Source: Bacillota bacterium
GTDB taxonomy: Bacteria > Bacillota > Dethiobacteria > DTU022
DNA length: 64,000 bases
Assembly (NCBI GenBank): GCA_012799185.1
Contig: JAAZLS010000074.1
Coordinates: forward strand, 781-64,780
Direction of reading: 5' to 3'
The translations under genes and the position numbers were made by a program. Positions within the stretch are counted from its first letter, which is position 1. Each line of letters opens with the position of its first letter. The notes under the pieces were generated by a model. That model searched no databases. It worked only from the letters and a program-made list of their open reading frames with translations, and had not been told where the DNA came from. Positions 3,368 to 47,787 of this stretch are shown piece after piece.

Positions 3368-3408
3368 ACACGACCGGAAACAAAAAGCATGGGAAAGGTA
3401 GCGCTACA

Positions 3409-4236
3409 ATGAAAAGCATGTTGAGCAACAAGTTCATTGTGATCGGCGGAACAATTATTGTACTAATGCTCCTGATAGCTATTTTTGCCCCCCTACTCAC
3501 CCCTTATGAGTATGGGACTGTCAATTTACCCAACAAACACCAGCCGCCAAGCAGTGAACATGTCATGGGTACGGATCTTTACGGTCGTGATGTCTGGTGC
3601 CGTATTGTATACGGGGCCCGCATCTCTTTATATGTGTCCTTCTCAGCAGTAGCAATAGCGATTATCTTTGGCAGTTTCTTTGGAATTATTGCCGGCTATC
3701 TTAAGGGTGTGGTCGATATTGTTTTCTCCCGGGTAATCGATATTATGATGGCCTTCCCCCCCCTTTTACTATCTTTAATCTTGGGGGCATGCCTGGGAAC
3801 ATCCCTTCAAAATATGACGATCTATATCGGGGTCCCCCTTATTCCCATGTTCTTCCGTGTTTCCCGGGGTGTAACCCTGAATATAGGTGAACGAACCTAT
3901 ATCATGGCTGCCAAATCGATTGGTAGTAGCCGTTTAAGAATCATGATGAAACATATTTTACCCAATGTATTACCCCAGATCTTTGTCGTGCTCTCCCTGG
4001 GGATGGGTGGCGCTATCCTGGCTGAGGCGGCATTGGGTTTCCTCGGCTTAGGAGTCCCCCAGCCCACGCCCTCCTGGGGATTGATCGTTAATGAGGGCAA
4101 ATTATATATGTTTTCCGCTCCCTGGACGACCGGCTTTAGCGGGGCATTTATCGCTTTAACCGTCCTGGGTTTTAACCTGTTGGGAGATGGCCTTAGAGAT
4201 TTCCTGGATCCCAAGCTTAAACACCTAGAAAGCTGA
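3409..4236 (+). CDS. ABC transporter permease (DppC/OppC-like)
   Basis: 275 aa, polytopic, with N-terminal OppC-type extension; sits in an operon with the adjacent ATPases. Confidence 0.85.
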   Translation: MKSMLSNKFIVIGGTIIVLMLLIAIFAPLLTPYEYGTVNLPNKHQPPSSEHVMGTDLYGRDVWCRIVYGARISLYVSFSAVAIAIIFGSFFGIIAGYLKGVVDIVFSRVIDIMMAFPPLLLSLILGACLGTSLQNMTIYIGVPLIPMFFRVSRGVTLNIGERTYIMAAKSIGSSRLRIMMKHILPNVLPQIFVVLSLGMGGAILAEAALGFLGLGVPQPTPSWGLIVNEGKLYMFSAPWTTGFSGAFIALTVLGFNLLGDGLRDFLDPKLKHLES

Positions 4237-4287
4237 CCGGGTAAGACACTAGTAGTTAATATGACCACCATATTAGAGGAGGTCTAG

Positions 4288-5355
4288 ATGAAGAGCCAAA
4301 AGGATTGCAATCAAGACTATAACGGCCGCCCCATGACCGAACATAAGTTGGCGGCAGCGGGGAAGAGGGCCCCACTCCTAGAGATCCGGGATCTAAGAAT
4401 AAGATTTCCCATAAGAGGCGGCGCTTCCGTGCACGCAGTAAATGGTATAGATTTGGACCTTTATCCGGGGGAATCCCTAGGCGTGGTCGGTGAATCCGGT
4501 TGTGGGAAAAGTGTTACCTTCTCCAGCGTAATGCGATTGGTCGCCTCCCCTCCGGCGATAATAGAAGGAGACATCTTTTTCGAAGGCCGAAATATCATGG
4601 AAATGACAACGAGAGAGATGCGTAAAATTCGGGGGAAGAAGATCACCATGATTTTCCAGGAGCCGATGACCAGCCTAAATCCAGTGATGAAAATCGGCTA
4701 TCAGATCATGGAGACCCTGCTCTTACATGAAAAGATTAGTAAAAAGGCGGCGGCGGAACGAGCGCTGGAACTTTTTAAGCTAGTCGAGATTCCAGATGCG
4801 GAGGGTCGTCTCTGGTGTTACCCCCACCAGCTCTCCGGCGGATTGCGTCAAAGGGTAATGATTGCCATGGCCCTGGCCTGTAGCCCGAAAATCCTCCTGG
4901 CGGACGAGCCTACTACGGCCCTGGATGTAACCATCCAGGCCCAGGTCCTTGATCTTCTTAAAAGGTTACAGCGAGAAACTAGCATGAGTATTGTCATGAT
5001 TACCCATGACCTGGGCGTGATCGCCGAGCTTTCAAAAAGGGTGGCCGTCTTTTATGCTGGCCGGGTACTGGAGGAGGCTCTCACCCCGGAGATATTTAGA
5101 AATCCCCTGCACCCGTATACGGTCGGACTCTTAAGTTGTATTCCAAAAATTAGAACGGAGCAGGAGCGGCTCTATGTAATTGAGGGCAACATCCCCGACC
5201 CCACCAACCTTCCGACCGGTTGCCCTTTTCACCCCCGCTGTAAAATTGCCACAGAAAAATGCCGCCGGGAAGAACCACTCAAGCGCAGGTATTCGGAAAA
5301 CCATTATGTTGCCTGTCATTATCCGGGTAAAATTACAGGGAAAATTACCGTTTAA
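4288..5355 (+). CDS. ABC transporter ATP-binding protein (DppD/OppD-like)
   Basis: Walker A GESGCGKS, signature LSGGLRQR and Walker [22 protein letters not shown] upstream. Confidence 0.85.
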
Positions 5356-5377
5356 CTATCAATATGAGGTGATTTTA

Positions 5378-7360
5378 GTGACAAATTTCCCTACGTTATT
5401 CACCCCCTTGGTATTAGGTCCTTTAACATTAAAAAACAGAATGTTATCCGCCCCCATGGGTACTCATAATAATACGGCGGAGGGTTATTTAAGTAGCGAA
5501 GGCATTGCCTTTTATGAACGGTTGGCCAAGGGCGGGGTGGCAGTAGTCTGCCTGGGAGAAACACTGGTCCACAGTGCTACCGGGAACAACCACGGCCGGG
5601 TTTTCCGTCTGGATGATCCGGGCAGCCTGCCGAGTTTAATTAAATGTACCGATGCGATCCATCGCTACAATGCCCTCGCCTCCATTGAGCTCCTTCACCC
5701 CGGCCGCCGGGCCGACCCGCTCTACAATGCCGAGGGTAAGGTTTATGGCCCCAGTGCCGGTAGCTGTCATTACGGCGATGGCTCCCATGAGGTAACTGAG
5801 CTGACAGAAGAGCTGATCGATGTAATTGTTAATGCCTTTGGTGACGCCGCCGAGATGGCTCAGATCGGAGGATGCGATTTCGTTACTGTCCATGGCGGCC
5901 ATGGCTGGCTGTTGGGACAGTTTCTTGCACCTAACAATAACTGGCGTACCGATCGCTTCGGTGGCAGCATTGAAAATCGGGCCCGCATTTTCGTCATGGT
6001 GGCAGAAAATATTCGCAAGAAATGTGGCCCCGACTTCCCGATCGATTTCAGAATTAGCGGAGATGATTTTACAGAAGGGGGAGCAACACTGGAAGATGCA
6101 ATCCAGTTGGCCAAGATCCTGGAAGATAAGATAGATATGCTCCACGTTTCTGCCACCAGTTTCCATAATCGCCGGGCGAGCATGCGCATGTTTCCCAGCA
6201 TGTTTTATCCCCGGGGTGTCAATGCCTACCTGGCGGAAGAGATTAAAAAACATGTTAATATTCCCGTGGTTACAGTCGGTGCCTTTAATGATCCTACCCA
6301 TATGGAACAGCTGCTAAGCGAAAAGAAAGTTGATGCTATCGCCATGGGGCGTGCCCTCCTGGCCGATCCCCTATTGCCGGAAAAGGCCCGAACCGGCCGG
6401 GAGGACGACATCATGTACTGCACCCGGTGCAATACATGCATCAGTGTTGGTTTTGTCCCCTATGTTAAATATAACCTGGGAGTCAGCCACTGTGCAGTTA
6501 ATCCTTGGCATGGGTTAGAGGAAAAACAGTTCTATGGCAAGGTCCCCCGCGGCAACCAAAAGGTACTGGTAGCCGGGGGAGGCCCGGCGGGGATGGAGGC
6601 GGCCCTAGGAGCCGCCGAGGGCGGCCACCGGGTTATCCTCTGTGAAAAAGAAGATAGTTTGGGCGGAGCCCTCCGTTATGCCTGGCATCCGGAATTTAAA
6701 AAAGATATCAAGCGCTTCGTAGAGGTGCTGGGCCGACGGATTGAACGCTCCGAGCGGATCGATGTCCGGTTAAATACCGCCGTTACCCCGGAACTGGTAA
6801 GGGAGATTGCCCCCGATGCCTTAATTGTCGCTATCGGTGCCAAGCCGATTGAGTTAAATATTCCCGGGGTCGATGATCCGCGGGTAATTAGAAGCATCGA
6901 TATCCACCGGGAAGATTTCCAAATCGGGGATAAGGTAGTAATCATTGGCGGGGGCATGGTCGGCTGCGAGGAGGGAATCGACCTTGCCAAATCTCACGGC
7001 AAAGAGGTAACTATTCTTGAAATGCAGGAACGGCTGGCCGGTGATGCGCCCTATGTCCATTACATCGCAATCTTAAATGAGATTGAACAGCTGGACAATC
7101 TAAAGGTTGAATTAAACCACACCTGTACCGCCATCAGCAATAAAGGCGTAATCTGTAAAGATCGGGAGGACCGGGAGAAGGTTTTCCCCGCCGATACGAT
7201 CATCATGGCGGTAGGGATGCGGGGATTAAGGGATGAAGCGGAATCGTTTCGGGGGTTAGCACCAACTGTTATCCCGGTCGGTGACTGTGTCAAACCATCC
7301 CAGATGGCCCCGGCCATTTTATCCGGTTACTTTGCAGGCTATAACCTCCAACGGTTCTAG
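5378..7360 (+). CDS. Old-Yellow-Enzyme-like NADH:flavin oxidoreductase fused to an Fe-S and FAD/NAD(P)-binding domain (enoate reductase / 2,4-dienoyl-CoA reductase family)
   Basis: The N-terminal TIM-barrel OYE region (PLTLKNRMLSAPM...HGGHGWLLGQFL), the Cys cluster CTRCNTCIS and a C-terminal GGGPAG dinucleotide-binding fold are all present. The GTG start at 5378 is preceded by GAGGTG; the longer ORF that begins at 5180 overlaps the upstream gene. Confidence 0.8.
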   Translation: MTNFPTLFTPLVLGPLTLKNRMLSAPMGTHNNTAEGYLSSEGIAFYERLAKGGVAVVCLGETLVHSATGNNHGRVFRLDDPGSLPSLIKCTDAIHRYNALASIELLHPGRRADPLYNAEGKVYGPSAGSCHYGDGSHEVTELTEELIDVIVNAFGDAAEMAQIGGCDFVTVHGGHGWLLGQFLAPNNNWRTDRFGGSIENRARIFVMVAENIRKKCGPDFPIDFRISGDDFTEGGATLEDAIQLAKILEDKIDMLHVSATSFHNRRASMRMFPSMFYPRGVNAYLAEEIKKHVNIPVVTVGAFNDPTHMEQLLSEKKVDAIAMGRALLADPLLPEKARTGREDDIMYCTRCNTCISVGFVPYVKYNLGVSHCAVNPWHGLEEKQFYGKVPRGNQKVLVAGGGPAGMEAALGAAEGGHRVILCEKEDSLGGALRYAWHPEFKKDIKRFVEVLGRRIERSERIDVRLNTAVTPELVREIAPDALIVAIGAKPIELNIPGVDDPRVIRSIDIHREDFQIGDKVVIIGGGMVGCEEGIDLAKSHGKEVTILEMQERLAGDAPYVHYIAILNEIEQLDNLKVELNHTCTAISNKGVICKDREDREKVFPADTIIMAVGMRGLRDEAESFRGLAPTVIPVGDCVKPSQMAPAILSGYFAGYNLQRF

Positions 7361-10475: not shown

Positions 10476-10551
10476 TGGTGGACGTGAGGGGATTCGAACC
10501 CCTGGCCTCCTGGATGCGAACCAGGCACTCTCCCAGCTGAGCTACACGCCC
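10476..10551 (-). tRNA. tRNA-Ala (anticodon CGC)
   Basis: The reverse complement folds as a 76-nt cloverleaf: acceptor GGGCGTG/CACGTCC with the G3:U70 Ala identity pair, anticodon loop TTCGCAT, T-loop GGTTCGAATCC, and an encoded CCA. Confidence 0.9.
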
Positions 10552-18653: not shown

Positions 18654-20192
18654 TTACTGCGTTTTATCCGCTGGCCTGACCTCCAGATAATAATGGGGAA
18701 TACTGGGATCCAAGAGAACCTCATCAATCCCATTTTCCAGATCAAAGCCATGGTTCTGGCGGACGATCACGGTCTGCTCTGTGTTGCAAACCGCGGCAGT
18801 CACTACCGTAAATTCCAGGTTGCTCCCCAGGCGGGTGACCAAATCATAACCGTGTATACCCTTATTCTCAGCGCCGTTGCAATGGAAATCGTAGCTCGGC
18901 TCTTTGTGCAGGGAGGCCGTTACCGAAGCGCTCTCTCCGGCAGGGATGGTTACCGGGAATTCCAGGTAAAAGATCCGGTCCAGGTTTCTGGTTTCTGAAA
19001 TAATATCTTCGACCATTCCCATCTCATAGCGATCACGAACAGAGCCGGAAAGCGGGCCATACTCCAGCATAAATCCGGACATCATCCCGAGAAACATCTC
19101 TTTGGGCACGGCAAGCTCTTCCCCATCGCCGTATTTTGAGAAGAAATTATCCACCAGATCACCGAGGATGGCAGACAAAAGCCCCTCGCTTCGGGTGATG
19201 GTTGCCGATACGCCGGCAAGCTCATTGCTTTTTTCGCAGGCGCCATTTTTATAGCCTTGCAAGGCGTACTCCCCGATGTCCTCACCAATGACAATGATAT
19301 ATTTTTCTTCGCTTTCTCTGCGGCTTCCGCCAGGCACGAAGTAGCTGAAGCGCCGCCAGCCCTCCTCGCCATATTCACAACCGTTAAAGCCGTAGAGCAA
19401 AATAGTGGTTTTTTCAGGATCGATATTAAAGCTGATGGCCTGGGTTGCAGCGTCGAACTCCTCAAGGGGCGCCTTGAAATCAGTAAAGCTGTAGACCGTC
19501 ACCGGTTGGGATAGGGTGGGATAAGCCGCCAAAGCACCTGCCTGGTAGCTCCCGTTCTCCAGAAGTGCTTTGTATTCTTCCCAGGAGTCAAGTTGTAAAA
19601 TGTTTGCGCTGCCCTCCGGGTCATCGACGCCGTAGGCCCCGGTAAAACCGCCCGAATATCCGCCCGGATGGAGCGCCGGGGAAACCGCCTGACCATTCAC
19701 CGTGATCACAGGCATCTGCCTTGCCAGCTTCCTAAAGCTTCCGACAAAGGGGTAAAGAGCACTTACCGTGCACTCCTGTCCCGAAATATTGGTGAGGAGA
19801 TGGCTGTCTTGCACCTTTGCCCCCCATAGAAGAAGTGAATCCTCGCTGGCCAGGGAGAAATCGTAGCTGATATGGCGGCCGGCGCTGATTCCGCTTTCTG
19901 CCTCAGCCAGCGTCAGGGGGAACATGGGCCCCGCGTAGGACATGAATACGGAGCTGCCCTCGGGATGGCCGGCTCCGCCGCCCCCTCCGGAGCCACCGCC
20001 AAAGGGAAAAAGATCCTGCCAAAACATCATGCTGCCAAAACCTACCACCAGGATGATACCGGCGGCTAGGGCAGCCCAAGTCTTCCATCTGGGACGGGAA
20101 GTATTCAACTTTCTATCCTGGGCATCTTCCACAAGAGCGGTGCGAATCCCGGTGATCGCGTTAAATAGTTTTATTTCGCTCTCCTGACTCAT
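18654..20192 (-). CDS. Hypothetical membrane-anchored protein (cytoplasmic N-tail, single TM, Gly-rich linker GGGSGGGGGAG, large extracytoplasmic domain)
   Basis: 512 aa. The TM segment is WAALAAGIILVVGFGSMMFW. No recognisable catalytic motifs. Its ATG overlaps the stop of the small upstream ORF (ATGA). Confidence 0.6.
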   Translation of the reverse strand: MSQESEIKLFNAITGIRTALVEDAQDRKLNTSRPRWKTWAALAAGIILVVGFGSMMFWQDLFPFGGGSGGGGGAGHPEGSSVFMSYAGPMFPLTLAEAESGISAGRHISYDFSLASEDSLLLWGAKVQDSHLLTNISGQECTVSALYPFVGSFRKLARQMPVITVNGQAVSPALHPGGYSGGFTGAYGVDDPEGSANILQLDSWEEYKALLENGSYQAGALAAYPTLSQPVTVYSFTDFKAPLEEFDAATQAISFNIDPEKTTILLYGFNGCEYGEEGWRRFSYFVPGGSRRESEEKYIIVIGEDIGEYALQGYKNGACEKSNELAGVSATITRSEGLLSAILGDLVDNFFSKYGDGEELAVPKEMFLGMMSGFMLEYGPLSGSVRDRYEMGMVEDIISETRNLDRIFYLEFPVTIPAGESASVTASLHKEPSYDFHCNGAENKGIHGYDLVTRLGSNLEFTVVTAAVCNTEQTVIVRQNHGFDLENGIDEVLLDPSIPHYYLEVRPADKTQ

Positions 20193-20407
20193 ATATTCAC
20201 CCCTTTTTCTGTTAAATACGCCCGCAGGCTTTTGCGCAGACGGAACATTCGCCCGGCCAGCTTATTTGGCGCAGTATCTAATTTGCCTACAGTAAGCATG
20301 GCGTTTGGTCCCATCATTGTAGCTTTCAGGAATTCAACATTTTTATCACTGGACATAAACCGATCAGTAAATGGATACATGGTGTTCACCCTTTCCAACT
20401 TCGGCAC
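20189..20407 (-). CDS. Small ORF whose C-terminus weakly resembles the sigma-70 region-4 recognition helix
   Basis: GTG start; 72 aa. NKLAGRMFRLRKSLRAYL resembles the TVKSRLHRARKKLREYL-type helix. There is no region-2 equivalent, and the upstream in-frame extension is at most about 30 codons. Confidence 0.3.
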   Translation of the reverse strand: MPKLERVNTMYPFTDRFMSSDKNVEFLKATMMGPNAMLTVGKLDTAPNKLAGRMFRLRKSLRAYLTEKGVNI

Positions 20408-20573
20408 ACAAAATGGCCGCTCCCCTACTACTTCCCCATAGTTAGCGCTACAAGGGGTAAGTTTGACAGTAGTTGCTGCAATGGCCTTCTTTCTCTACAA
20501 AAACAGGGAATTCCTCTTTGCAACTAGCAGTGTAAACTCCTTTTTTGCCACAAAACCCTCATAATCCGCCGGA

Positions 20574-20900
20574 TCAAGTCAAAGTATTTGCGGTAAATTC
20601 ATCCGCCTTATCCTCTGCTTCACCTTTAGCAAAATCGTAGTCAACTAGCTTATCCTCGATATCACCATTTATGATGTGACCAATTTCGTGGAAAAATGTG
20701 AACCAAAACATATCGGCAAATTTCCGCCTTGTAGTCATAAGCAAGTTTAAGGTGCTATCATCATTCTTTTTAATCACGCCTTGGACAGGAGCGCCCCTAA
20801 AGTTTTTGACAATAGAAAACTTAATGCCGCACTCAGCCAGATAGGTTTTTAATCGGGATTGGACATCGGCCACATCTTCAAACATCAGTTCTTTAATCAA
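20574..20900 (-). CDS. ImmA/IrrE-family metallopeptidase-like protein (short, possibly a remnant)
   Basis: HEIGH zinc-binding motif inside FFHEIGHIINGD. 108 aa is shorter than typical ImmA. No cognate XRE-family regulator is adjacent. Confidence 0.5.
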   Translation of the reverse strand: MIKELMFEDVADVQSRLKTYLAECGIKFSIVKNFRGAPVQGVIKKNDDSTLNLLMTTRRKFADMFWFTFFHEIGHIINGDIEDKLVDYDFAKGEAEDKADEFTANTLT

Positions 20901-20913
20901 AGGGATCTTATCC

Positions 20914-21000
20914 TATATTTTGTACCTGGTGAAAATGATAGGGGTGAAGATTATTATAATTCACTAACTGAAGTACCCCATATTTTTGGGCCTATTGGTG
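20914..21000 (+). repeat. 87-bp direct repeat, copy A (about 96% identical to copy B at 23144-23230); derived from a metallophosphoesterase coding fragment
   Basis: Aligned by eye with 3 mismatches over 87 bp. Encodes YFVPGENDRGEDYYNSLTEVPHIFGPIG. Confidence 0.7.
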
Positions 21001-21021
21001 GGTGCAAAATTAAAATGGGGG

Positions 21022-21085
21022 GGCACAATATCCTTTTGCTTGAAGCCCTTACCTTGAGCCTTTCCTAACCTATCCCATAACAAAA
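21022..21085 (+). repeat. Degenerate copy (about 70-75% identity) of the ssrA 3'-flank/terminator region found at 24534-24604
   Basis: Shared blocks ATATCCT..TGCTTGAAG..CTTACC..AGCC..TTT..AACAAAAAACCCGC occur in the same order. Confidence 0.45.
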
Positions 21086-21132
21086 AACCCGCTACGGGAG
21101 CACAAGGGGACAGACACAGGGGGACTGTCCCC
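21080..21132 (-). terminator. Tandem hairpins plus T-tract terminating the PadR-cassette operon
   Basis: GGGGACAG...CTGTCCCC 8-bp stem, then CCCGTAGCGGG followed by TTTTTTGTT on the minus strand. Confidence 0.4.
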
Positions 21133-21172
21133 ATTATTCCCAATAAATAATTCAGTAAAGCGACCCCTGTAT

Positions 21173-21760
21173 TTAGAATATATCATCCGGCATGATATAA
21201 GGCTGGATGGCGAAGCTCTCTGCGATAAAGGATTTAACGTAGGACCGGTCTTTCAGGGGGCGCTGGACCATTTCCGCCCACTTTTCTTCATTTTGGAGGG
21301 CCGAAAGGTCCAGGCCGTAGCAGCCTTCCAGCACGCAGCGGGATATGGTATAGGAAATTCCCTGGTAATTTAAAACCAGGGTATCCAGATTACCGATCAG
21401 CACGAAATTGGCGGTGGCAGCATAGATCAGGGCCTGTTCAAAAAGCCCTTCCTCGAATTCAGTCGGGGTAGCCTGATAATAGATCTCGGCCATTAGACTA
21501 TCGGGATGGAGCTGAAATCTTTTCGGGATTTCCCCCAACGGCAAATTGGCGTTCAAGTTGGCCAGATTGGAGGCATCGCCCATGTAGGGGCTTTTGAATT
21601 TTAGCAGCCTGCCAAAATCATGGGTCAGGGGATCCGCCTGCTCAGCAATGTAGCGCTCCTCCTGCGCTTTCATCCGCGGTTTGATGTACCCCTCTACCAA
21701 AACCAGTCCCAGAATTCCCACCGCCACAAGCAAGATGATCAGGATATTTCTTTTTCTCAT
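21173..21760 (-). CDS. Hypothetical signal-anchored protein, third gene of the PadR cassette
   Basis: Probable start MRKRNILIILLVAVGILGL (N-terminal TM). No identifiable motifs. Confidence 0.5.
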   Translation of the reverse strand: MRKRNILIILLVAVGILGLVLVEGYIKPRMKAQEERYIAEQADPLTHDFGRLLKFKSPYMGDASNLANLNANLPLGEIPKRFQLHPDSLMAEIYYQATPTEFEEGLFEQALIYAATANFVLIGNLDTLVLNYQGISYTISRCVLEGCYGLDLSALQNEEKWAEMVQRPLKDRSYVKSFIAESFAIQPYIMPDDIF

Positions 21761-21761
21761 T

Positions 21762-22445
21762 TTATTCTTCCTTCCCGTGTTTCTCCGCCAGGGCGCAGGC
21801 TTTGCCAAAGAGCAGGGGGATAATCAGGGTGAGCAGGGGCAGTGCGTAGTTCAGAACGATCAGCGCAAACTGGTAAGGCCCCCCGACATGGGGGAAGCGG
21901 CCGAACCAGAGATTGCTGCCGAAGTACTTGAGCGTGTTCAAAACAGCGCTCAGCGCCATGTAAAGGATCCAGATCAGCCAGGCTGCTTTGCGGAAAAGGT
22001 GCAGCCTTTTTGAATTCAGGGGCGCAGCGGCCTCCCGGGATTCGCCCTTCATGCGGAATGAGCCTAAAAGAAACAAAATCCCCAGGATGAGCAAGATCAG
22101 GGCGAGGGCCGTATTGACAAAGATCCCCGTGGGCAAAATCCGGGCGGGGATGGTCGCCAACCAGGCGATCAGGAGGTAAAGAAGGGCGCTCTGCAGCAGC
22201 TCCAGGCGGAAGCGGTTTATGTAAACCGGCTTCCGATCCGGCAGCAGATCATCAACCGAATCGAGGGAGCCCTTCGCTTTGGAAAGCGCCTCCTCGTAAA
22301 CCAATCCCTGCTCCAGATAGTCCGCCAGCCGGGCTTCCAGATTCCCCAAGACCTCATTTTTCAATTCCCTTGACTCGGCGCTCTTGTGTCCGGCAAAGAG
22401 CCGATCCACATAATTTTTTAGATCATCTCTCGAATTATCTGCCAT
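21762..22445 (-). CDS. PadR-associated membrane protein (DUF1700-like: N-terminal helical cytoplasmic domain plus C-terminal TM segments)
   Basis: 227 aa. The N-terminal charged helical region (DDLKNYVDRLF...EEALSKAKGSL) is followed by 3-4 TM segments. It overlaps the stop of the PadR gene. Confidence 0.55.
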   Translation of the reverse strand: MADNSRDDLKNYVDRLFAGHKSAESRELKNEVLGNLEARLADYLEQGLVYEEALSKAKGSLDSVDDLLPDRKPVYINRFRLELLQSALLYLLIAWLATIPARILPTGIFVNTALALILLILGILFLLGSFRMKGESREAAAPLNSKRLHLFRKAAWLIWILYMALSAVLNTLKYFGSNLWFGRFPHVGGPYQFALIVLNYALPLLTLIIPLLFGKACALAEKHGKEE

Positions 22446-22797
22446 CTGTCTGCTCCTCCTCCGGCTGCCGGATCAGGCGATCGATCAGATTTCGCGCCGA
22501 TCGCCATGCCTTCAGGTTTTCAATGAATTGGGTCCGGCCCGCTTCCGTGACCCGATAATATTTTCTGCGCCCCCCCTGGGTCTCCTCGCCCCAGTAGGAT
22601 TCCAGGGCGCCCTGGGTCTCCAGGCGGCGCAGCGCGGAATAAAGGGTGGGCTCTTTTAGTTCAAATTCCCCGCTGCTTTTCAAATAGATCTCCTTGATGA
22701 TCTGATAACCGTAATTGTCCTCCTTCTGCAGCACGCTCAAAATAATGGTGTCGATACTTCCCCGCACCAGATCGCTGTTCAATGCGGATTCAGCCAT
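22435..22797 (-). CDS. PadR family transcriptional regulator
   Basis: 120 aa winged-HTH with the PadR hallmarks GSIDTIILSVL...NYGYQIIKEI...EPTLYSALRRLE..G. Confidence 0.85.
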   Translation of the reverse strand: MAESALNSDLVRGSIDTIILSVLQKEDNYGYQIIKEIYLKSSGEFELKEPTLYSALRRLETQGALESYWGEETQGGRRKYYRVTEAGRTQFIENLKAWRSARNLIDRLIRQPEEEQTDGR

Positions 22798-22827
22798 AAA
22801 ATCACCTCGCTGTCCCTTGTAAATAGC

Positions 22828-22856
22828 AATGTATCACGTATTACTATGTGTGTCAA
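22828..22856 (-). promoter_or_regulatory. Sigma-A-type promoter TTGACA-17-TACATT upstream of the PadR gene
   Basis: Minus-strand reading gives -35 at 22856-22851 and -10 at 22833-22828, with RBS GAGGTGA before the ATG. Confidence 0.4.
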
Positions 22857-22915
22857 TATACTATTTGTAATCTATCTTTGTCCGGTGATATTATCGCCAC
22901 TAGAATGCCCAGTAA

Positions 22916-23233
22916 GTGTTATTTTGGTGGTTTGAAAATTTCACTTTAAAGGTTACTAACAAAAAAATATGTGGTTCAAAAGTTAACAACGAAATTAAAA
23001 TCGTGCATTTAACCGATCTGCATGGTGCTGAATTTGGGAAAAACAATAAATCTCTTATTAGTAAAGTTAGTATACTTTTGGCAAGGACCATGAAAAGAAA
23101 ACAGCAATCAATCTAATGGCGGAACTGGCTCAAACAGTTCCGGTATATTTTGTACCTGGTGAAAATGATAGAAGTGAAGATTATTATAATTCACTAACTG
23201 AAGTACCCCATATTTTTGGACCTATTGGTGTGG
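22916..23233 (+). pseudogene. Fragmented calcineurin-like metallophosphoesterase gene
   Basis: The N-terminal fragment IKIVHLTDLHGAEFG (GDxHG-type motif) and the downstream fragment VPVYFVPGENDRSEDYY (GNHD-block-like) lie in different frames, separated by a stop. The second fragment is repeat copy B (23144-23230). Confidence 0.5.
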
Positions 23234-23462
23234 GATGCCCTCAGCAGTGAGATGTTTGGAGATGGCTCATATTACCCCGAAGCTACACCGATTAAGCATG
23301 AATGCTACGCTGTGTCAAAATGGTTGGTTCCTGAAGTTGAACATACAATATATTACTGTTATTCCTGCTCGGCCCTTTTCATAATACCCTTACAAAAATG
23401 CAGTAGCCCTGGCGCTGGCCCGGTTTCCCCTCAGAAAAGCCCCTAAGATTATCACCTACCTG

Positions 23463-24434
23463 TTGTGGGCGGTAGCAGGTTTCCGGCTGGTGTTCCCTTT
23501 CCCCATCCGGGGTTTATTTAGCCTGCTTCCCTTTAATTCCGCCCCCATCCCGCTGGATCTAGCCGCGCGGGCAATCCCGCAGATCGAGAGCGGAATCTCC
23601 CTCATCGACAAAGCCGTCAGCAGCGCCCTCCCCGCCGCTTTGCCCGCTGTAGGAGTCAGTCCGTTACAGACCTGGCTGACGATCGGCTCATCCATCTGGC
23701 TGGCCGGGGTTATGATTATGTTGCTCTACAGCATCCTCACCATAATCCGGTTGAAGCGGCAACTGCGCTCTGCGGTAAATGTTGAGGATAATATCCATGA
23801 AACAGCCAATCTTAAAACCCCGTTTGTAATCGGGCTGCTTCACCCGCAAATCTTTATCCCGGCCGGGTTGGACCCAGAAGAGCGCCGTTACATAATTTTA
23901 CATGAGCAGATACATATCAGGCGGCACGATCCGGCCATAAAAATATTGGCTTATTTTATACTCTCCCTCCATTGGTTCAACCCCCTTGCCTAGCTGGCTT
24001 TCCTGCTGATGAGCACCGATATGGAAATGTCCTGCGATGAACGAGTGCTAGGAGAGCTGGGCAGCCAGATAAAAATCGCTTACTCCCGGTCACTGATCTG
24101 CCTGGCAGCGGGAAAACCTATATTTAACGGCAGTCCCCTCGCCTTTGGGGAAGGCCGAATGAAAGAAAGGATTGATAACGTGTTGAATTTTAAGAAACCT
24201 TCGAGGGTGAGCATCATTTTTGCCGTTATTCTAGTAGCAGCTCTAGGACTTGGACTGACACTCAACCGTGATTTTCGGGAACCGGTCGGGCCCGGTGAAA
24301 TTAACCGAAATACACCCGGGCTGACCATCACCACCCCCCGCGATCTTTATTCCCCGACTATGAGCTCCATCTTCGGCTTTGAGCTAGTGGTGCAGGAAAA
24401 TATTTATGAACAACTGAAGCGCTATGTTAAATAG
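23463..24434 (+). pseudogene. BlaR1/MecR1-type M56 peptidase-domain gene, 5'-truncated and interrupted by an in-frame TAG (23991-23993)
   Basis: The HEQIHIRRHD (HExxH...) motif is followed, after the in-frame amber codon, by the M56-typical EMSCDERVL block in the same frame. The N-terminal TM1 is not encoded in frame upstream. No BlaI-like repressor is adjacent. Confidence 0.6.
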
Positions 24435-24589
24435 TCCTCAAAAAGGGACTATTTTGCTTTAGACCCCGCCCTTTACCGGTGTGAAATCCCCCGTTTTGCG
24501 CCCGTCACCTAAACTTATGCACAAAAACACATGGGAGCGATATCCTGGTGCTTGAAGTTCTTACCCTAAGCCCTTTAAGCCCCTTCGGC

Positions 24590-24618
24590 AACAAAAAACC
24601 CGCCATTTACGGCGGGCC
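24590..24618 (-). terminator. Rho-independent terminator of ssrA (GCCCGCCGTAAATGGCGGG + TTTTTTGTT)
   Basis: Hairpin plus T-tract about 30 nt downstream of the tmRNA 3' CCA, read on the minus strand. Confidence 0.55.
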
Positions 24619-24647
24619 GAGATTGTATCAATTCCTGTTACTTAATA

Positions 24648-25001
24648 TGGTGGAGGCGGCGGGAATCGAACCCGCGTCCGAAAGCCCGGTTATAGAAACT
24701 TCTACAGGTTTAGCCCCCGGTTCATTCTTGCCCTGCCGGATCCCCGGAGCCCGATCCTTTCAGGGCCAGCTTCGTTAGAATTCCCCCGGTGGTGGTGAAG
24801 CAACCGCCCCCGAGGTAGACCGGCTTAGTGACGCTCCCATCCTCCCCCCCGGCCAGGGAAAGGGGGGAACGCGCTACTTTTAACTAAGCAGCGTAAGCTA
24901 AATTATCGTTGGCGTTTATAGCCGTTCCATGTTTTTACCAGGCCATGGTCCTGGACCTGCCGTTCCTATCTCCTAAACCCTCGTCGAATCCTTACGCCCC
25001 C
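24648..25001 (-). ncRNA. ssrA: tmRNA (SsrA), 354 nt
   Basis: 5' GGGGGCGTAAGGATTCGACG and 3' GGGTTCGATTCCCGCCGCCTCCACCA tRNA-like ends with a G3:U70 pair. The internal tag ORF GCC AAC GAT AAT TTA GCT TAC GCT GCT TAG encodes (A)ANDNLAYAA. Lies adjacent to smpB. Confidence 0.85.
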
Positions 25002-36303: not shown

Positions 36304-37185
36304 CTAGATTATAACCTTCTCTATATCCCGGTGGACCAGGTTTACCGAGTACTGTTCTTCTAGAAAACGTCCTAAATCATCGGCTATAACCACTGAACGA
36401 TGCCGCCCACCGGTACAACCGATGGCCACTACCAGACTGCTCTTCCCCTCCCGGACACAATAGGGAATAATAAACTGCAGCAGATCGCGAATTTTTTGAT
36501 AGTACTTATGGCTAACCGACCACCGGTAGATATATTTTCTTATCCGGGGGTCGGTACCCTTTAGGGGCTTTAAATGTTCAACATAAAAGGGGTTGGGTAT
36601 AAACCGGACATCAAATACTAGGTCTGCTTCCGGGGGTAGGCCATACTTAAATCCAAAAGAGACCAGTTGGATTAATATCTTGCGATCTTTTAATCCGGCC
36701 TCGGTGTAAATCCGGGCTATCTTTTCTTTAAGCTGGGCCGGTGACAGGGAGGAGGTATTGATAATATGATCGGCCCTGCCCCTTAACTCACTTAGCACCT
36801 CTTTTTCCTGGCGCAACAGTTCGCTAAGGGTCCCCCCGGTAAGGGGGTGTCGCCGGCGGGTCTCCTTAAAGCGGCGAATAAGTACCTCTTGTTCCGCCTC
36901 CAGGAACAGGATGTCATAATCTACACCCGACTCCTCCAATTGATCAAGAACCTCAAAAAGATCATCAAAAAAAGTTCCTCCCCGAATGTCGCACACTAAA
37001 GCCACCCGGTTGATCTTGCCCTCAGAGTGAGCACAGAGTTCGGCAAATTTTGGAATAAAGGTAGGAGGTAGATTGTCTACGCAGAAGTAATCCAGATCTT
37101 CAAAACAGTTAACGGCGTTACTTTTACCCGCCCCGGAGAGCCCGGTTATTAATACTAATTTTAACGACGGTCCCCTTCCGGTCAT
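36304..37185 (-). CDS. rapZ: RNase adapter protein RapZ (YvcJ)
   Basis: P-loop GLSGAGKS at the N-terminus; 293 aa; conserved rapZ-whiA synteny. Confidence 0.85.
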   Translation of the reverse strand: MTGRGPSLKLVLITGLSGAGKSNAVNCFEDLDYFCVDNLPPTFIPKFAELCAHSEGKINRVALVCDIRGGTFFDDLFEVLDQLEESGVDYDILFLEAEQEVLIRRFKETRRRHPLTGGTLSELLRQEKEVLSELRGRADHIINTSSLSPAQLKEKIARIYTEAGLKDRKILIQLVSFGFKYGLPPEADLVFDVRFIPNPFYVEHLKPLKGTDPRIRKYIYRWSVSHKYYQKIRDLLQFIIPYCVREGKSSLVVAIGCTGGRHRSVVIADDLGRFLEEQYSVNLVHRDIEKVII

Positions 37186-37227
37186 TTTGACCTCCCTCTC
37201 AGTGGTTTTATCCGCCCCGACACCCCG

Positions 37228-39081
37228 TCAGTTTTGAACCTCCCCATGTAGAAACTTATAGACCCGAGAGGCCAATTTTTTACTAAATCCCGGCACCTTT
37301 TCAATCTCCTCCGGTGTAGATTGCCATAATCGATTGATATTACCAAAATGATCGAGTAAAGCCGCTCTGCGCCGGGGCCCAATTCCTGGAATCTCTTCCA
37401 ACTGGGAACGGCGGTTACGGGTTAAACGCCTGCGGCGGTGGTAGGCCAGGGCAAACCGGTGGGCTTCATCCCGTACCCTTTGCACCAGCTGTAGCAGCGG
37501 GGAATGGGCCGGCAGAACAACCGGGGCATCGGCCCCCTCCAGGAAAAGATGCTCCGTTCCCTCGGCCAAGGCCAGCAGGGTCAACCGCTCTTTCCCGGCC
37601 CGGTTTAACACCTCTCGGGCCGCCGATAACTGGCCTTTTCCACCATCGATTAACAACAAGTTCGGTTCGGGCCAGTCCTCCCGGGCAAGGCGGCGCCCGA
37701 GTACCTCCTGCAGGGCGGCATAATCATCACCGGGCTTAGCCTCCCGCAGTAGGAACCGCCGGTAGTGTTCCCTCCGGGGGCGCCCCTTTTCAAAGACCAC
37801 CATCGCCCCCACCGCCTCTTTCCCTTGGAGATGGGAGATATCGTACCCTTCAATTCGCCGCGGTCCCTCCTCCAGGCCAACCAACCGGGCCAGCTCTCGG
37901 AGAGGTTCCTCCTCCCGCCGACGGGAGGAGCGGAGCTGTTCCTCCAAGGCCAACCGGCCATTCCGGCGGGCCAGCTCCAGTAGCTCCCTCCTTTTACCAC
38001 GGCGCGGGTGCTTTAAGGCTACCTTACCCTTTTTTTTCCGGCTTTGCAACCACTGCTGTAATAGCTCTTCATCGGCAGGCCGGCTGGAGAGAAGTATCTC
38101 ATCCGGCGGTCTCTCAACCCGGCCGTAGTAGCTCTTCATAAAACCGGCCAACACCTCCGGCTCGCCCAAGCCCGCTGTGCCGGTAAGCGGGAAATGTTCC
38201 TGGCTTAGCAGTTTACCCTCCCGGATCTTAAACAGGTGAACCGCCGCTCTCTCCTCCCGGCTAACCAGGGCCAGCACATCCTGATCCGGGCCCTCCCGAA
38301 CCAGGACCTTTTGCTCCTGAGTCACCACCTCCCGCAGTGCCCGGAGCTGATCCCGTAGCCGGGCCGCCCGCTCAAAGGCCCGTTGTTGCGAGGCCTCCTC
38401 CATTTGCCGGGTTAGAGCCTCTTCCAGCGAACGAGTTCTACCCTCCAGGAAGAGGGCGATCTGTTCTACCATCTGCCCATATTCCTGCAAAGGTACATCT
38501 TTTTCTCCCCGGCAGGGAGCTAGACAACGTCCCATCTGGTAGTTAAGGCAGGGGCGCCCGGAGGTGGGCTCCCCGGTTAGAGACTGCCGGCAGCGCCTAA
38601 GGGGAAAAATTTTGCCCAGCAAACGCAAGGTGTCACGCACCGACCCGGCCCTAGTAAAGGGTCCAAACCAACGCTCTTTACCGGTAACCGGGCTGTAACC
38701 CCTTCTCTGGGTAAGGCGCAGCATTAACAGGCGGGGGTACGGCTCAGCGGTAAGCATGAGGTAGGGGTAATCCTTATCATCCTTTAGGTTTACATTGTAA
38801 CGCGGGTAATGCTCTTTAATCAGGTTGCATTCGAGAACCAGTGCCTCTGCTTCGTTATCGGTAACCAGGTATTCAATGTCAGCCATGTGGGACTGCAGAA
38901 CCCGGATCCGGGGGGGCATCCCCGTTTCGGCTAGGTAGTAACGTACCCGTTGCCGCAATAGCTTGGCCTTACCCACATAGATTACCTGTCCGGAAGCATC
39001 CTTAATCAGGTATACCCCCGGGGAGGCGGGGAATCGTCCCACCTTCTGTTCCAGTTCTTTCAAACGCCCGGCCATGCTCAC
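37228..39081 (-). CDS. uvrC: Excinuclease ABC subunit C
   Basis: GIY-YIG N-terminus (PGVYLIKDASGQVIYVGKAK), an endonuclease V-like domain and a C-terminal HhH domain. Confidence 0.9.
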   Translation of the reverse strand: MSMAGRLKELEQKVGRFPASPGVYLIKDASGQVIYVGKAKLLRQRVRYYLAETGMPPRIRVLQSHMADIEYLVTDNEAEALVLECNLIKEHYPRYNVNLKDDKDYPYLMLTAEPYPRLLMLRLTQRRGYSPVTGKERWFGPFTRAGSVRDTLRLLGKIFPLRRCRQSLTGEPTSGRPCLNYQMGRCLAPCRGEKDVPLQEYGQMVEQIALFLEGRTRSLEEALTRQMEEASQQRAFERAARLRDQLRALREVVTQEQKVLVREGPDQDVLALVSREERAAVHLFKIREGKLLSQEHFPLTGTAGLGEPEVLAGFMKSYYGRVERPPDEILLSSRPADEELLQQWLQSRKKKGKVALKHPRRGKRRELLELARRNGRLALEEQLRSSRRREEEPLRELARLVGLEEGPRRIEGYDISHLQGKEAVGAMVVFEKGRPRREHYRRFLLREAKPGDDYAALQEVLGRRLAREDWPEPNLLLIDGGKGQLSAAREVLNRAGKERLTLLALAEGTEHLFLEGADAPVVLPAHSPLLQLVQRVRDEAHRFALAYHRRRRLTRNRRSQLEEIPGIGPRRRAALLDHFGNINRLWQSTPEEIEKVPGFSKKLASRVYKFLHGEVQN

Positions 39082-39085
39082 CCAC

Positions 39086-41932
39086 CTAACCTTTCCCTAC
39101 ACCGGTCGGGTTACTGGATCCGGCTAAAACTTCTTTCAACCATTTTCCAGTATAGGAGTCTTTAACCCGGGCCACCTCTTCCGGAGTACCCCGGGCCACC
39201 ACCCGCCCGCCTTCCTCCCCGCCCTCCGGACCTAGATCGATCAGGTAATCGGCCCTTTTTAATACCTCCGGGTTATGCTCAATTACCAGCACCGTATTAC
39301 CGGCCCCTGTTAGCCGGTCCAGGATATTTAACAGTTTCTTTATATCCTCCAGGTGGAGACCGGTAGTAGGCTCATCTAATATATAGAAAGTGCGCCCCTT
39401 GCTACGCCGAGCCAGCTCGGTAGCCAGTTTTACCCGCTGGGCCTCTCCCCCGGAGAGGGTGGTGGCCGGTTGTCCCAGCCGGATATAGCCCAAACCCACA
39501 TCCTGCAAGGTCTGTAACCGGCGGCTGATCTTGGGGAAGGTTTCAAAGAGCTCGCTCGCCTCCGACACGGTCATATCAAGAACATCGGCAATGTTTTTCC
39601 CCTTGTAAAGTATCTCCAGGGTCTCCCGATTATAGCGCCGCCCACCACAAACCTCGCAGGGAACGTAAACATCGGGTAGAAAATGCATCTCGATCCGCAG
39701 TATCCCGTCTCCTCGGCAGGCTTCGCACCGGCCGCCTTTTACATTAAAGCTAAACCGGCCCGGACGGTAACCTCGCTTGCGCGATTCAAGCATCTGGGAG
39801 AAAAGCTCCCGGATCCCATCAAAGAGACCGGTGTAGGTAGCTGGGTTGGAACGGGGGGTCCTCCCGATTGGAGTCTGATCAATTACCACTACCTTTTCCA
39901 GGTGATTCAGACCTTCAATCCGATCATGGTCCCCGGGCTGCTCTCGGGAACGATAGAGATGACGGGAGAGGGCCCGCCCCAGGATTTGGTTTACCAGGGT
40001 ACTCTTCCCGGAGCCAGAAACCCCGGATACACAGACAAAAAGCCCCAAGGGGATACCGACATCAATATTCTTTAAGTTATTTTCTCGGGCCCCCCGGACC
40101 CATAGCCATCGTTCATTGGGAAGCCGCCTCTGGTCGGGCAGGGGGATCGAGCGGCGCCCGGAGAGGTAATCCCCGGTTATCGATGCAGGGCTACTCATAA
40201 TACTAGCCACATCTCCCTGGGCCACAATATGTCCACCCCGCGCCCCGGCGCCGGGTCCGATATCGACCAGATGATCCGCCCGCAAAATAGTCTCCAGATC
40301 ATGCTCCACTACGATTACCGTATTACCTAAATCGCGGAGCGCCTCCAGCGTATCCAGTAGCCGGGCACTATCCCGGAGGTGGAGGCCGATGCTTGGCTCA
40401 TCTAGGATATAGATCACCCCGGTTAACCCGGAACCGATCTGGGTGGCCAGCCGAATGCGTTGGGCCTCTCCCCCGGAAAGGGTGGCTGCCGGGCGATCCA
40501 GGGCCAGATAACCCAGCCCGACATCAATTAAAAACTGTAGTCGGGAGCGGATCTCCTTTATGACCTGGGCGGCAATCTGTTTTTCCCGTTCATCTAAAGA
40601 AAGCTCCCGGAGTCGCTTCTCTGCCTTCTCCACCGTTAAGGCCGCTATCTCCGCTATATTATAACCGTCTACCAGCACCGAAAGGCTCGATTCCTTTAGA
40701 CGTAGCCCACCACAGGCGGGACAGGGTAAGTTAACCTGGTAACGGGCCAGATCCTGGCGTACACTCTCCGATTCCGTGGTTTTAATACGTTGCTGCAAGA
40801 GCTTGATAATCCCCGGGAAGGGCCGGTGATAGTTGCGCACCCGGCCGAACCGGTTTACATAACGAAATTTTATAGGCTGGCTGGAACCATAAAAGATAAT
40901 CTCCTTCTGTTCCGGGCTAAGATCACGGAAAGCTACATTTAGGTCTATCCCGAAAGCATCGGCGGCCGCCTCTAAGAACTGCCGATAATAGCGACTGTCA
41001 CCTTTCCAGGGATGGATGGCCCCCTCGGCGATGGTTAGCTCGGGATAGGGCACAATTAACTCCGGAGAAAATTCCGCCTTCCTCCCCAACCCGCTGCACT
41101 GGGGGCAGGCGCCGTAGGGGCTATTAAAAGAGAAAGCCCGGGGACTGATCTCCTCGAAACTAAACCCGCAATGGGGACAGGAAAAACGCTCGCTAAAGAG
41201 ATGTTCCTCCCCCTCGACCTCTTGCACCAAGGCCAGCCCCTCGCCCAACTTCAGGGTAGTTTCCAGGGAATCAGCCAGGCGGGTCTCAATCCCTTCCCGC
41301 ACCACTAGCCGGTCAACCATCACCTCGATCGAATGTTTCTTGTTTTTGTCCAGGGAGATCGGCTCCTCCAACTCGTAAATCTGTCCGTTAACACGGACCC
41401 GGACAAAGCCACGGCGGCGCATCTCCTCCAGCAGGCGACTGTGTTCCCCCTTGCGCCCCCGCACCAGGGGGGCTAAAACCTGCAGCCGGCTCCCCTCTGG
41501 TAGGGTCATCACCTGGTCTACCATTTGCTGGACGGTTTGCCGGGCTATAGGCTGCCGGCAGTGGGGACAGTACGGTTTACCTACTCGGGCAAAAAGCAGG
41601 CGCAGATAGTCATAGATCTCGGTAACCGTACCCACCGTGGAGCGGGGGTTGCGGGAACTGCTTTTCTGATCAATTGAAATCGCCGGGGAGAGACCCTCAA
41701 TATGATCCAGATCCGGCTTATCCATCTGCCCCAAGAACTGACGGGCATAGGCTGAAAGGGACTCTACGTAGCGGCGTTGGCCCTCGGCATAGATGGTATC
41801 AAAGGCCAGGGAGGATTTACCCGAACCACTTAACCCAGTAAAGACAATTAAATTGTTACGGGGAAGGGTTAAATCAATGTTTTTCAAATTATGCTCCCTC
41901 GCCCCGCGAATTATAATTTTTCCTGAATTCAT
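39086..41932 (-). CDS. uvrA: Excinuclease ABC subunit A
   Basis: Two ABC ATPase modules with zinc-finger Cys pairs. Start at MNSGKII is preceded by AAGGTGAAG; the longer ORF is an upstream extension. Confidence 0.95.
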
Positions 41933-41951
41933 TTCTTCACCTTTTGCCACT

Positions 41952-44012: not shown

Positions 44013-44103
44013 CTTTCAACGTGTATTCTTCAATATTTTATTATACCACATGGCGGCAAACAGATCCGTCACAGTAACTTTGTAACCGGAGGCGGGCGGG
44101 CTA

Positions 44104-44712
44104 TTAAGATATGAAGGAGCCCGGTGCTAACTGACCCCGGGTAAAGATCAGCACTAGGCCAATGATAATAAATAGTATAGCCGTAATGATTTTTATGATG
44201 GTCGGGTCGACCCGGGATAAAAAACGGGCACCCAGGAAAATAGCCAATCCATGGTTGGCGGCCATGGCCAACATGCCTCCCGTCAGCACCAGCAACGGCT
44301 GCCCTAAATTGGCCGCCAGCAACATGGCTGCCAGCTGGGTCTTGTCACATAGCTCCGCAATAAAGACCATTCCCAGGGTCTGGTAAAATCCAGCTTTGCC
44401 GGTAGGCATCCCCGTCTCCTCCTCCCGCTTAAGGGCGGTATAGAGACCCATGAAGAGAAACATTACTCCGGAACCGATAATTAGCACCGTTGGCGGGCAA
44501 TAGGCCGCAATTAGCCCCCCGGCCAATATAGCCAGGCTCAACGATAAAAAGAGGGCGGTGAGGGCCCCTCCTAACACCTGGAAGGGCGGATAGCGACCGG
44601 CCATGGTGAGAGATACCAACTGGGTCTTATCGCCGAACTCGGCGATAAATATAGTGATAAAGGCTGTAATTAACGTCGAAAATTTTAACGCCTCCCTCGC
44701 TGTTCCCACCAC
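44104..44712 (-). CDS. UPF0016/GDT1-family membrane protein (putative Mn2+/Ca2+:H+ transporter)
   Basis: Two copies of the E-x-G-D-K-T motif (EFGDKTQL, ELCDKTQL) in a 6-TM protein. Confidence 0.75.
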   Translation of the reverse strand: MVGTAREALKFSTLITAFITIFIAEFGDKTQLVSLTMAGRYPPFQVLGGALTALFLSLSLAILAGGLIAAYCPPTVLIIGSGVMFLFMGLYTALKREEETGMPTGKAGFYQTLGMVFIAELCDKTQLAAMLLAANLGQPLLVLTGGMLAMAANHGLAIFLGARFLSRVDPTIIKIITAILFIIIGLVLIFTRGQLAPGSFIS

Positions 44713-47548: not shown

Positions 47549-47731
47549 CTACCCCCACCACCTTTAGCCCGGGTTTAGACATACTGTTTTAATTATATCT
47601 CTAGCTTCTTTAAAAAACTACCTCCCTCCGCTTAATCGGTGAAGGTGAGTAGCTATAATACAGTAGGCTATCGCTAAGCAACAATAAAAAACAGGCTATC
47701 TACCTGCTTTAAAATAAAAAAGCGAAGCAAT

Positions 47732-47787
47732 AAGGACCGTCCCCACTGCTTCACACCACTGCTTCAAGGACCGTCCCCACTGCTTCG
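47732..47787. repeat. Tandem direct repeat (about 34-bp unit, roughly 1.6 copies; core AAGGACCGTCCCCACTGCTTC twice, CCACTGCTTC three times) in the intergenic region between the M23 peptidase and ctpA
   Basis: Read directly from the sequence: 47732-47753 and 47766-47787 are 21/22 identical. Confidence 0.5.

Follow-up and report, generated by a model that had tools for sequence, protein, structure and literature searches.

The islands described in Islander carry a tyrosine integrase gene and leave a displaced fragment of the gene into which they have inserted, and they may also occur in tandem arrays; the gene for transfer-messenger RNA (tmRNA) is reported to be their most enriched target, with crossovers in the anticodon loop, the T loop or the T/acceptor junction (PMC4383910). 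In Dehalococcoides, several islands follow one another in tandem downstream of ssrA, the gene for the tmRNA, and a copy of the insertion site, 20 bp from the ssrA 3′ end, marks the boundary of each. They insert in the T loop, and a serine recombinase module (DsiB) lies by the left attachment site (attL). Some of these islands lack integration genes, and their authors point out that deletion and amelioration can erase the evidence (PMC3146451). Cis-mobilizable elements (CIMEs), which belong to the accretion of ICEs (integrative and conjugative elements) and IMEs (integrative and mobilizable elements), lack genes for integration and transfer; they have attachment-site repeats on both sides, become stacked when site-specific insertion recurs at one site, and are mostly decayed. 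What defines them is their relation to a known ICE or IME, the integrase of which works on their sites (PMC5704250). The tycheposons of Prochlorococcus carry tyrosine recombinases and leave partial tRNA copies, and in their arrays, by tRNA and tmRNA genes, newcomers push the residents deeper into the island and leave degenerate remnants (bioRxiv 10.1101/2020.12.28.424599). Here, we compare with these systems the DNA downstream of ssrA in a metagenome-assembled genome (MAG) of a Bacillota bacterium (assembly GCA_012799185.1, contig JAAZLS010000074.1, positions 781 to 64,780; MAG proteins NMA92664–NMA92670, on a 75-kb contig), a species present in many biogas-fermenter metagenomes. This whole stretch of 64,000 nucleotides is called the window, all positions are in its coordinates unless assigned to another contig, and L-numbers are labels for related metagenome contigs, whose source metagenomes include SRR3184648, SRR28714079, SRR28714609, SRR24902087 and the MTKW project. 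We consider it likely that small integrase-less cassettes were inserted successively at the terminal CA of the tmRNA and that the region downstream of ssrA is the array they formed, now decayed.

The anchor of the proposed array is an intact, full-length ssrA gene at 24648–25001 (− strand; ARAGORN; Rfam RF00023, 181 bits; tag ANDNLAYAA), which stands at one end of the region, as expected of the target gene in an island signature. It is followed by an intrinsic terminator at 24597–24618 (− strand), recognized by terminator scan and fold, whose region folds at −21 kcal/mol. Our alignments showed that the adjoining flank recurs farther out: 24533–24603 matches 21021–21092 at 54 of 70 ungapped columns (77%) with two small indels, and weaker similarity extends to 21003. 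The Smith–Waterman score of this pair is 31, against 9.0 ± 1.4 and a maximum of 19 in 2000 dinucleotide shuffles, and no other place on either strand of the 64-kb window scores above 16. The blocks ATATCCT, TGCTTGAAG, CTTACC and AACAAAAAACCCGC stand in the same order in both copies, and the composite pattern that they form has exactly two matches in the window, with 0 expected. A preliminary description made from the letters alone had proposed that about 90 bp past the tmRNA 3′ end has a degenerate counterpart at 21003–21095 with these blocks collinear, and had named a similarity at background level as what would count against the idea; the counterpart is real and far above chance. The same description placed the A-tract and the terminator hairpin in both copies, of which the U-tract and the 3′ half of the stem are indeed shared but the full hairpin is not: the distal copy (21088–21098) retains the U-tract with a hairpin of just 4 bp (−4.3 kcal/mol, z = −0.47), where the criterion is a GC-rich stem of at least 5 bp, and the terminator scan made no call there. 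The distal copy is probably a fossil without present function, apart from perhaps aiding the termination of the PadR operon described below. A profile search of the 64 kb recovered these two copies only, both on the ssrA strand, with no third copy marking an outer edge of the array.

Comparison with the related contigs, of which those with slightly altered cargo genes proved informative, resolves the flank into two parts. The first, about 90 nt long and here termed block O, comprises in its working copy (24558–24649, − strand) the last 2 nt of the tmRNA, a spacer (24619–24647; 29 nt, invariant ATTGATACAAT), the terminator at 24597–24618 and the proximal flank (24558–24596). The second, at 24480–24557 (− strand), is the distal part of the flank as first delimited and represents a cassette-side arm ("P-prime type") of an M56 cassette, 97% identical to that of L127. 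The distal copy divides in the same way. Its fossil block O (21046–21098, − strand; nhmmer E = 2.6 × 10−17) has lost the spacer and the 5′ half-stem and kept the 3′ half-stem, the U-tract and the proximal flank, and 21021–21045 (− strand) is what an older cassette has left of its cassette-side arm, with 25 nt here versus 127 nt in L090 and L111. In these two contigs the distal flank copy is longer, and positions 944–1070 of the reverse complement of L090 match 24480–24603 of the window at 97 of 124 columns (78%). The other conserved cassette end, the P arm, measures about 100 nt and is found ahead of the displaced O copies of L127, L090 and L119. It is 80.8% identical between L127 and L090 over 130 nt and holds an inverted copy of the spacer motif, which in L090 is identical at 21 of 21 positions to 24622–24642 of the window. 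A P-arm remnant in the window at 20974–21018 (− strand), reading CCATTTTAATTTTGCACCCACCAATAGGCCCAAAAATATGGGGTA, lines up collinearly with the P arm before the displaced blocks of L127 and L090. As a separate observation, the arm just before the displaced blocks (L090 1431–1453; L127 660–700; L119 2625–2667) reads ..TC(A/C)ATTCCT.TTA.T.TAGACA and loosely resembles the tmRNA 3′ end TCGATTCCCGCCGCCTCCACCA, agreeing with it at about 11 of 22 positions; the resemblance might be due to chance, or the arm might be a strongly decayed copy of the end of the gene.

Block O has two sharp ends that recur from contig to contig. Copies without ssrA were found in L111/L112/L113, twice in L119, as copy 2 in L127 and in L090, all in direct orientation and with the same two ends, and they represent at least four other junction types. 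Every O copy that keeps the spacer starts with ..CATAT(T/C)AAGTAA, so that its start coincides with the final 2 nt of the tmRNA, and every ssrA-less copy that reaches the other end loses its homology to the window at 24560–24575. ARAGORN found no tmRNA on L090, L111–L115 and L119, and Rfam found none on the four contigs scanned (L090, L111, L113 and L119). The ssrA-less copy of L111 (1147–1236; 85.6% identical to 24649–24560 of the window) sits between the 3′ end of a metallophosphoesterase gene and an unrelated 331-aa open reading frame (ORF), and in L119 such copies lie on either side of the PadR operon.

A bounded and intact cassette is present in another species, represented by the 12-kb contig L127, which compared to the window is 74% identical in smpB, 83% in the tmRNA and 72% in the HD gene. 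Between two O copies 2.85 kb apart (3380–3498, abutting the tmRNA, and 562–650) it carries blaI and an intact M56 gene (446 aa), along with two small ORFs that have no Pfam matches; both site copies are thus kept, as they are in CIMEs. The cargo of this cassette is 97% identical to 23412–24396 of the window, and contigs L128–L131, from other samples, are 100% identical to L127. Along the ssrA flank the window and L127 are 97% identical over 24408–24557, a value equal to that of the cargo, and then about 81% identical over 24558–24647; the switch at 24557/24558 is the very point where the ssrA-less O copies diverge. Such a switch could equally be the end of a tract exchanged by ordinary homologous recombination, which might swap or stack cassettes between related genomes with the flank block and the cassette ends as homology anchors, and with neither a dedicated recombinase nor an attachment site. 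That no recombinase gene was found and that the O copies are diverged instead of identical would suit this explanation. Yet replacement by homologous recombination makes no direct duplication of its anchor, and the block is duplicated around cargo in L127 and L119; further, at least four independent contexts have both block ends at identical nucleotides, and the conserved P arm precedes three displaced copies that lie next to unrelated cargo. Homologous recombination alone is the main rival to successive insertion; we regard it as unlikely, and it leaves the duplicated blocks unexplained.

Under successive insertion at the tmRNA end, an inserted cassette would come to lie between two direct O copies, of which the one beside ssrA would keep terminating the tmRNA transcript and the other, with the P arm before it, would be pushed outward. 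Movement of the cassettes would, we infer, depend on a site-specific recombinase whose gene lies elsewhere, possibly with strand exchange near 24557/24558. The junction of a circular cassette would then read P arm ...TAAATTGTATC.ATTCCT.TTA.T.TAGA / CATATTAAGTAAC...GGATAAGGGC / TTCAAGCACCAGGATAT. In the window, 24480–24649 would be the live junction, block O plus cassette-side arm, of the blaI–M56 cassette, and 21021–21098 the fossil junction of an older, related cassette, shifted outward by later insertions and then shortened by deletions, which has lost its spacer and half of its terminator; the two flank copies of the preliminary description would be these two junctions, with arms homologous at 78%. 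Reading outward from ssrA, the proposed order is the live block O and its arm, the M56 cassette, a HepT-like remnant, a scrap of P arm, a metallophosphoesterase pseudogene and the PadR operon, and then the fossil block O and its arm, a scrap of P arm joined to a phosphoesterase scrap, and an ImmA-like pseudogene. Later deletions would have taken the cassette ends and parts of the cargo, giving rise to the M56, HepT-like, metallophosphoesterase and ImmA-like pseudogenes as well as to an 87-bp repeat.

The occurrence of block O in several contexts with neither ssrA nor a recombinase might also suggest a dispersed intergenic repeat, for instance a terminator-carrying miniature element that came to lie behind ssrA and the PadR operon by chance. 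We hold this to be quite improbable: the 64 kb contain two copies only, both on the ssrA strand and no more than 3.6 kb from the gene; the block profile found none in about 1 Mb of sequence from 80 loci of distant relatives, and two DNA patterns had 0 matches in viral contigs. Further, every copy is direct and lies at a cassette boundary, with one end at the tmRNA 3′ terminus. Another explanation sees in the shared flank what is left of the 3′ end of a protein gene, the phosphoesterase, which once converged on ssrA and has since decayed; it draws on one frame in which the copies read GSDILVLEVLTLS and GHNILLLEALTLS with a 3-nt indel. The mismatches are nevertheless spread evenly over the codon positions (6/5/5 and 11/7/9), and the intact phosphoesterase of L111/L112 ends in quite different sequence, on which two grounds we rejected this hardly credible alternative; a protein query made of the concatenated phosphoesterase fragments found no homologs either. 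A structured RNA was likewise tried for the shared flank and rejected, as there was no Rfam match and the consensus fold (−7.8 kcal/mol) showed no compensatory pairs. In the wider Rfam search of 20400–24660 (E ≤ 5), nothing but a chance miRNA match was returned, and a promoter scan of the flank gave nothing.

The cargo between the two junctions records deletions that can be read against the related contigs: the window is without the segments L127 189–1302, L127 2288–3242 and L111 2123–2584. The M56 (BlaR1-like) pseudogene (23412–24434, + strand) lacks its 5′ end, has a stop at 23991–23993 and has lost about 955 nt at 24395/24396; its two ORF pieces (23463–24434) both match Pfam PF05569, and it shares 97% identity with the intact gene (446 aa) of L127/L128. 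In the proposed history, the lost 955 nt would be the 3′ part of the M56 cassette (L127 2288–3242), and a deletion of about 1.1 kb (L127 189–1302) would have taken away blaI together with the start of M56, the P arm and the second O copy, and so fused M56 to the HepT-like remnant. This remnant (23337–23411, − strand), which is the 3′ end of its gene joined to the truncated M56 by the ~1.1-kb deletion, is 75% identical to L127 112–188; it reads PGLLHFCKGIMKRAEQE before its stop, versus PGLLHFCSGILKKAEKEQ before the stop in L127, whose homolog matches Pfam PF01934 (E = 3.6 × 10−8). The metallophosphoesterase pseudogene (22915–23203, + strand; low GC content) is 86% identical to the intact gene beside PadR in L111/L112, which codes for 298 aa (Pfam PF00149, E = 6.7 × 10−13). 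It bears three lesions, namely the deletion of its start and promoter (462 nt), an internal deletion of 40 nt and the loss of its 3′ two-thirds. The 462-nt deletion at 22915 (L111 2123–2584) also takes most of the divergent intergenic region, of which 118 nt are left upstream of PadR, and its junction, AGTAA/GTGT, shows a 3-nt microhomology.

By comparison, one cargo operon is intact (21173–22797, − strand): it comprises a PadR regulator (22435–22797), a 227-aa membrane protein (21762–22445) and a DUF4825 protein (21173–21808), assigned with Pfam. It is 94–96% identical in L111–L119 and about 96% identical in L090 and L111–L115. Beyond the fossil junction lies an ImmA/IrrE-like metallopeptidase pseudogene (20574–20900, − strand), which is cut at both ends and has a weak Pfam M78 match. 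The 168-aa ImmA-like version of L082, a contig of the same species, matches PHROG phrog_2439 ("transcriptional regulator") and phrog_87 ("metallo-protease"); there (5144–5969), the gene is followed by DNA that differs from the window left of 20529. Since the ImmA-like homologs mostly have 220–276 aa, even the version of L082 looks 5′-truncated. In the window the gene is cut and fused, in the region 20407–20574, to a C-terminal fragment of a sigma-factor-like ORF (20189–20407). The contexts of ImmA-like homologs in L102 and L103 proved unrelated, with an apparent flank match of L102 at chance level. The GC content downstream of ssrA forms a mosaic of 0.31–0.54, with the phosphoesterase and ImmA pieces at 0.31–0.40 and M56 and the PadR operon at 0.51–0.54. 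Two of the deletion breakpoints are polymorphic within the species: L124 keeps the end of blaI and the start of M56, and L082 keeps the longer ImmA-like gene. The preliminary description had allowed that relatives with the same layout and no indel polymorphism would speak against serial insertion; the layout is indeed the same throughout 20529–25000 in the contigs of the species itself, but these breakpoints vary.

The 87-bp repeat (family D1) occurs as copy A (20914–21000, + strand), which the distal flank copy adjoins, just as first described, and as copy B (23144–23230, + strand), with 84 of 87 positions identical (97%). Copy B consists of 60 nt of the metallophosphoesterase (23144–23203) and 27 nt of P-arm remnant (23204–23230), and copy A has the same junction. 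Because the repeat unites 60 nt of phosphoesterase with the last 27 nt of a P-arm remnant, it is a junction fragment, so that its initial designation as a phosphoesterase fragment suits 60 of the 87 nt and the other 27 are the remnant of a cassette end. The preliminary description regarded the two repeats together as one unit, the phosphoesterase fragment plus the ssrA flank, duplicated in tandem in this genome and since diverged, and both do occur twice in the same order and orientation inside 3.6 kb. The two components have nevertheless diverged unequally, with 3 of 87 mismatches in the 87-bp repeat versus 16 of 70 in the flank copies (Fisher p = 3 × 10−4); they are adjacent at the distal copy only and separated by 1.3 kb on the proximal side, and L090 and L111 carry the longer distal flank copy with no 87-bp repeat adjoining it. 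These features run counter to a duplicated unit, which is accordingly very improbable. Further, the window and L111 agree at 97% in the distal flank copy, which is no more than 77–80% identical to the proximal copy, and the split between the two flanks must therefore long predate the 87-bp duplication. The 87-bp repeat arose from a deletion and was duplicated later. Directly before copy B, inside the phosphoesterase pseudogene, is a terminator-like hairpin (23120–23142, + strand), probably a chance match, as the same sequence sits within the intact coding region in L111. A similarity between the left extension of L090 and the phosphoesterase fragment of the window was also considered and found not significant.

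Several observations weigh against successive site-specific insertion. Pfam scans of the ORFs in 7–30142 and 36304–55636 of the window detected no recombinase domain (integrase, serine recombinase or transposase), and the related contigs yielded no recombinase or transposase except an IS256-family gene in L119; with none found, the enzyme and its reaction are what we infer. Searching the window with ssrA and its spacer (blastn-short) returned chance 11–13-mers only and no displaced ssrA fragment, and there was none on the related contigs fetched. A partial copy of the ssrA 3′ end, a possibility raised in the preliminary description, is thus not there; the repeated block takes in no more of the gene than its last 2 nt. 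A search of the window with the spacer pattern gave a single match and no second copy. With neither a displaced ssrA fragment nor a second spacer, the fossil copy is without the parts that would prove a site-specific junction. The O copies are, moreover, only 75–90% alike, unlike the near-identical cores of fresh integrations. The M56 cassette stands beside a foreign ssrA in a single metagenome contig, L127, with L128 and L130 reaching just 19 nt into the tmRNA, and L090 and L111–L119 have no core genes by which to place their hosts. Lastly, contigs of the species itself, from at least six samples, have the same layout throughout 20529–25000, so that no movement is seen at present. Set against these are the ssrA-less blocks at cassette boundaries, the bounded cassette of L127 and the visible deletions, which uphold the initial idea of a scar of successive insertion and deletion at a tmRNA hotspot with no integrase left.

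Neither the cargo of the window (the PadR operon and the pseudogenes, by Pfam) nor the L127 cassette contains integration or transfer genes. A prophage or plasmid origin was rejected, as blastn of 20400–24650 found no match in 50,697 phage or 72,556 plasmid records and the two DNA patterns gave none in viral contigs. The IS256-family (Transposase_mut) gene of L119 lies at 3447–4490, about 700 nt past the displaced block, and is the only transposase or recombinase near any copy. Just past the distal flank copy in related contigs, and not in the window, there is a 509-nt AT-rich cassette coding for a 151-aa membrane protein (L090 776–1284; L111 4811–5266; L100 817–1325), which matches a contig from a low-GC Firmicute at 95% identity and has homologs in Tissierellales.

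Upstream of ssrA lie smpB, rnr, an HD-domain gene, secG and eno. An SmpB-based scan of a genome collection kept 80 loci, all of distant relatives (SmpB identity ≤ 80%) and with the window's own MAG not among them. In these loci the gene order is common only as far as ssrA, where synteny stops, and downstream of it they have no flank homology and no genes in common. In L127, the segment 4707–9052 between smpB and rnr holds YhhN, a 722-aa ORF, a C-terminal fragment of a cation ATPase and a nitroreductase, and rnr is split into two ORFs; these four genes and the split gene mean that the upstream side of ssrA–smpB has also been rearranged there. Contigs of the window's species from several samples end at 24644–24677, the boundary of spacer and tmRNA, or within ssrA at 24810–24910, which as an assembly hint suggests alternative downstream sequences behind an identical ssrA. 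Farther out, a 512-aa ORF (18654–20192, − strand) has no Pfam or PHROG match and contains internal repeats of about 34 nt (19636–19706), and contigs from six samples all break inside the ORF, at 18976–19743; it may be a repetitive surface or anti-sigma-like protein. A tRNA-Ala(CGC) gene (10476–10551, − strand) lies 14 kb off ssrA, between MFS and TetR/AcrB genes, and no integrase or repeat was noticed beside it.

Beyond the window, the conserved ends raise the possibility, which we put forward only tentatively, of an undescribed family of integrase-less cassettes of about 2–3 kb that move between Firmicute species in anaerobic digesters. Such cassettes would insert right after the CCA of the tmRNA, driven in trans by a recombinase, and each would bring its own spacer–terminator block so that ssrA keeps a terminator. 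If the family is real and mobile, it would offer a route for regulator/sensor pairs (blaI–M56, the PadR operon) and toxin-like genes between the species of biogas reactors, and its conserved ends are concrete sequences for tracing the recombinase. Standard island finders look for an integrase and a displaced piece of a tRNA or tmRNA gene, and an array like that of the window would escape them. For annotation, 20.5–24.6 kb is best regarded not as native chromosome but as a decayed mosaic in which the PadR operon alone is intact, beside four pseudogenes. Within the window, the feature itself is probably a fossil with no function, and the practical point is modest; the cassette family to which it points is what deserves attention.

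When set beside the described systems, the locus shares with the Islander islands the tmRNA anchor, foreign cargo on the 3′ side between direct repeats and a target gene that keeps its function; unlike them, it has no integrase that could be found and no displaced gene fragment, its repeated block being the last 2 nt of the tmRNA with spacer, terminator and flank. As in the ssrA islands of Dehalococcoides, a tandem array behind ssrA is bounded by repeats of the site and has members without integration genes; the repeat here is, in contrast, outside the gene, there is no ssrA-internal repeat, no recombinase was seen and the cassettes are only about 2–3 kb. The cassettes resemble CIMEs in being site-flanked, stacked, mostly decayed and free of integration and transfer genes. 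They differ in that no partner ICE or IME was identified here; in the window, further, the pair of attL and right attachment site (attR) typical of CIMEs is not kept, the distal copy being without its spacer and half of its terminator and there being no further copy, so that the remnants there no longer count as CIMEs. Like the tycheposon arrays, the region has residents pushed outward, degenerate remnants and scattered partial copies of the site, although neither a tyrosine recombinase nor partial tRNA copies were seen here. By analogy with these systems, the direct block copies with fixed ends, the conserved cassette ends and the near-identical cargo at the same locus across species appear to match site-specific accretion, and what sets the locus apart from the known tandem islands and CIMEs is a repeated site located entirely downstream of the gene.

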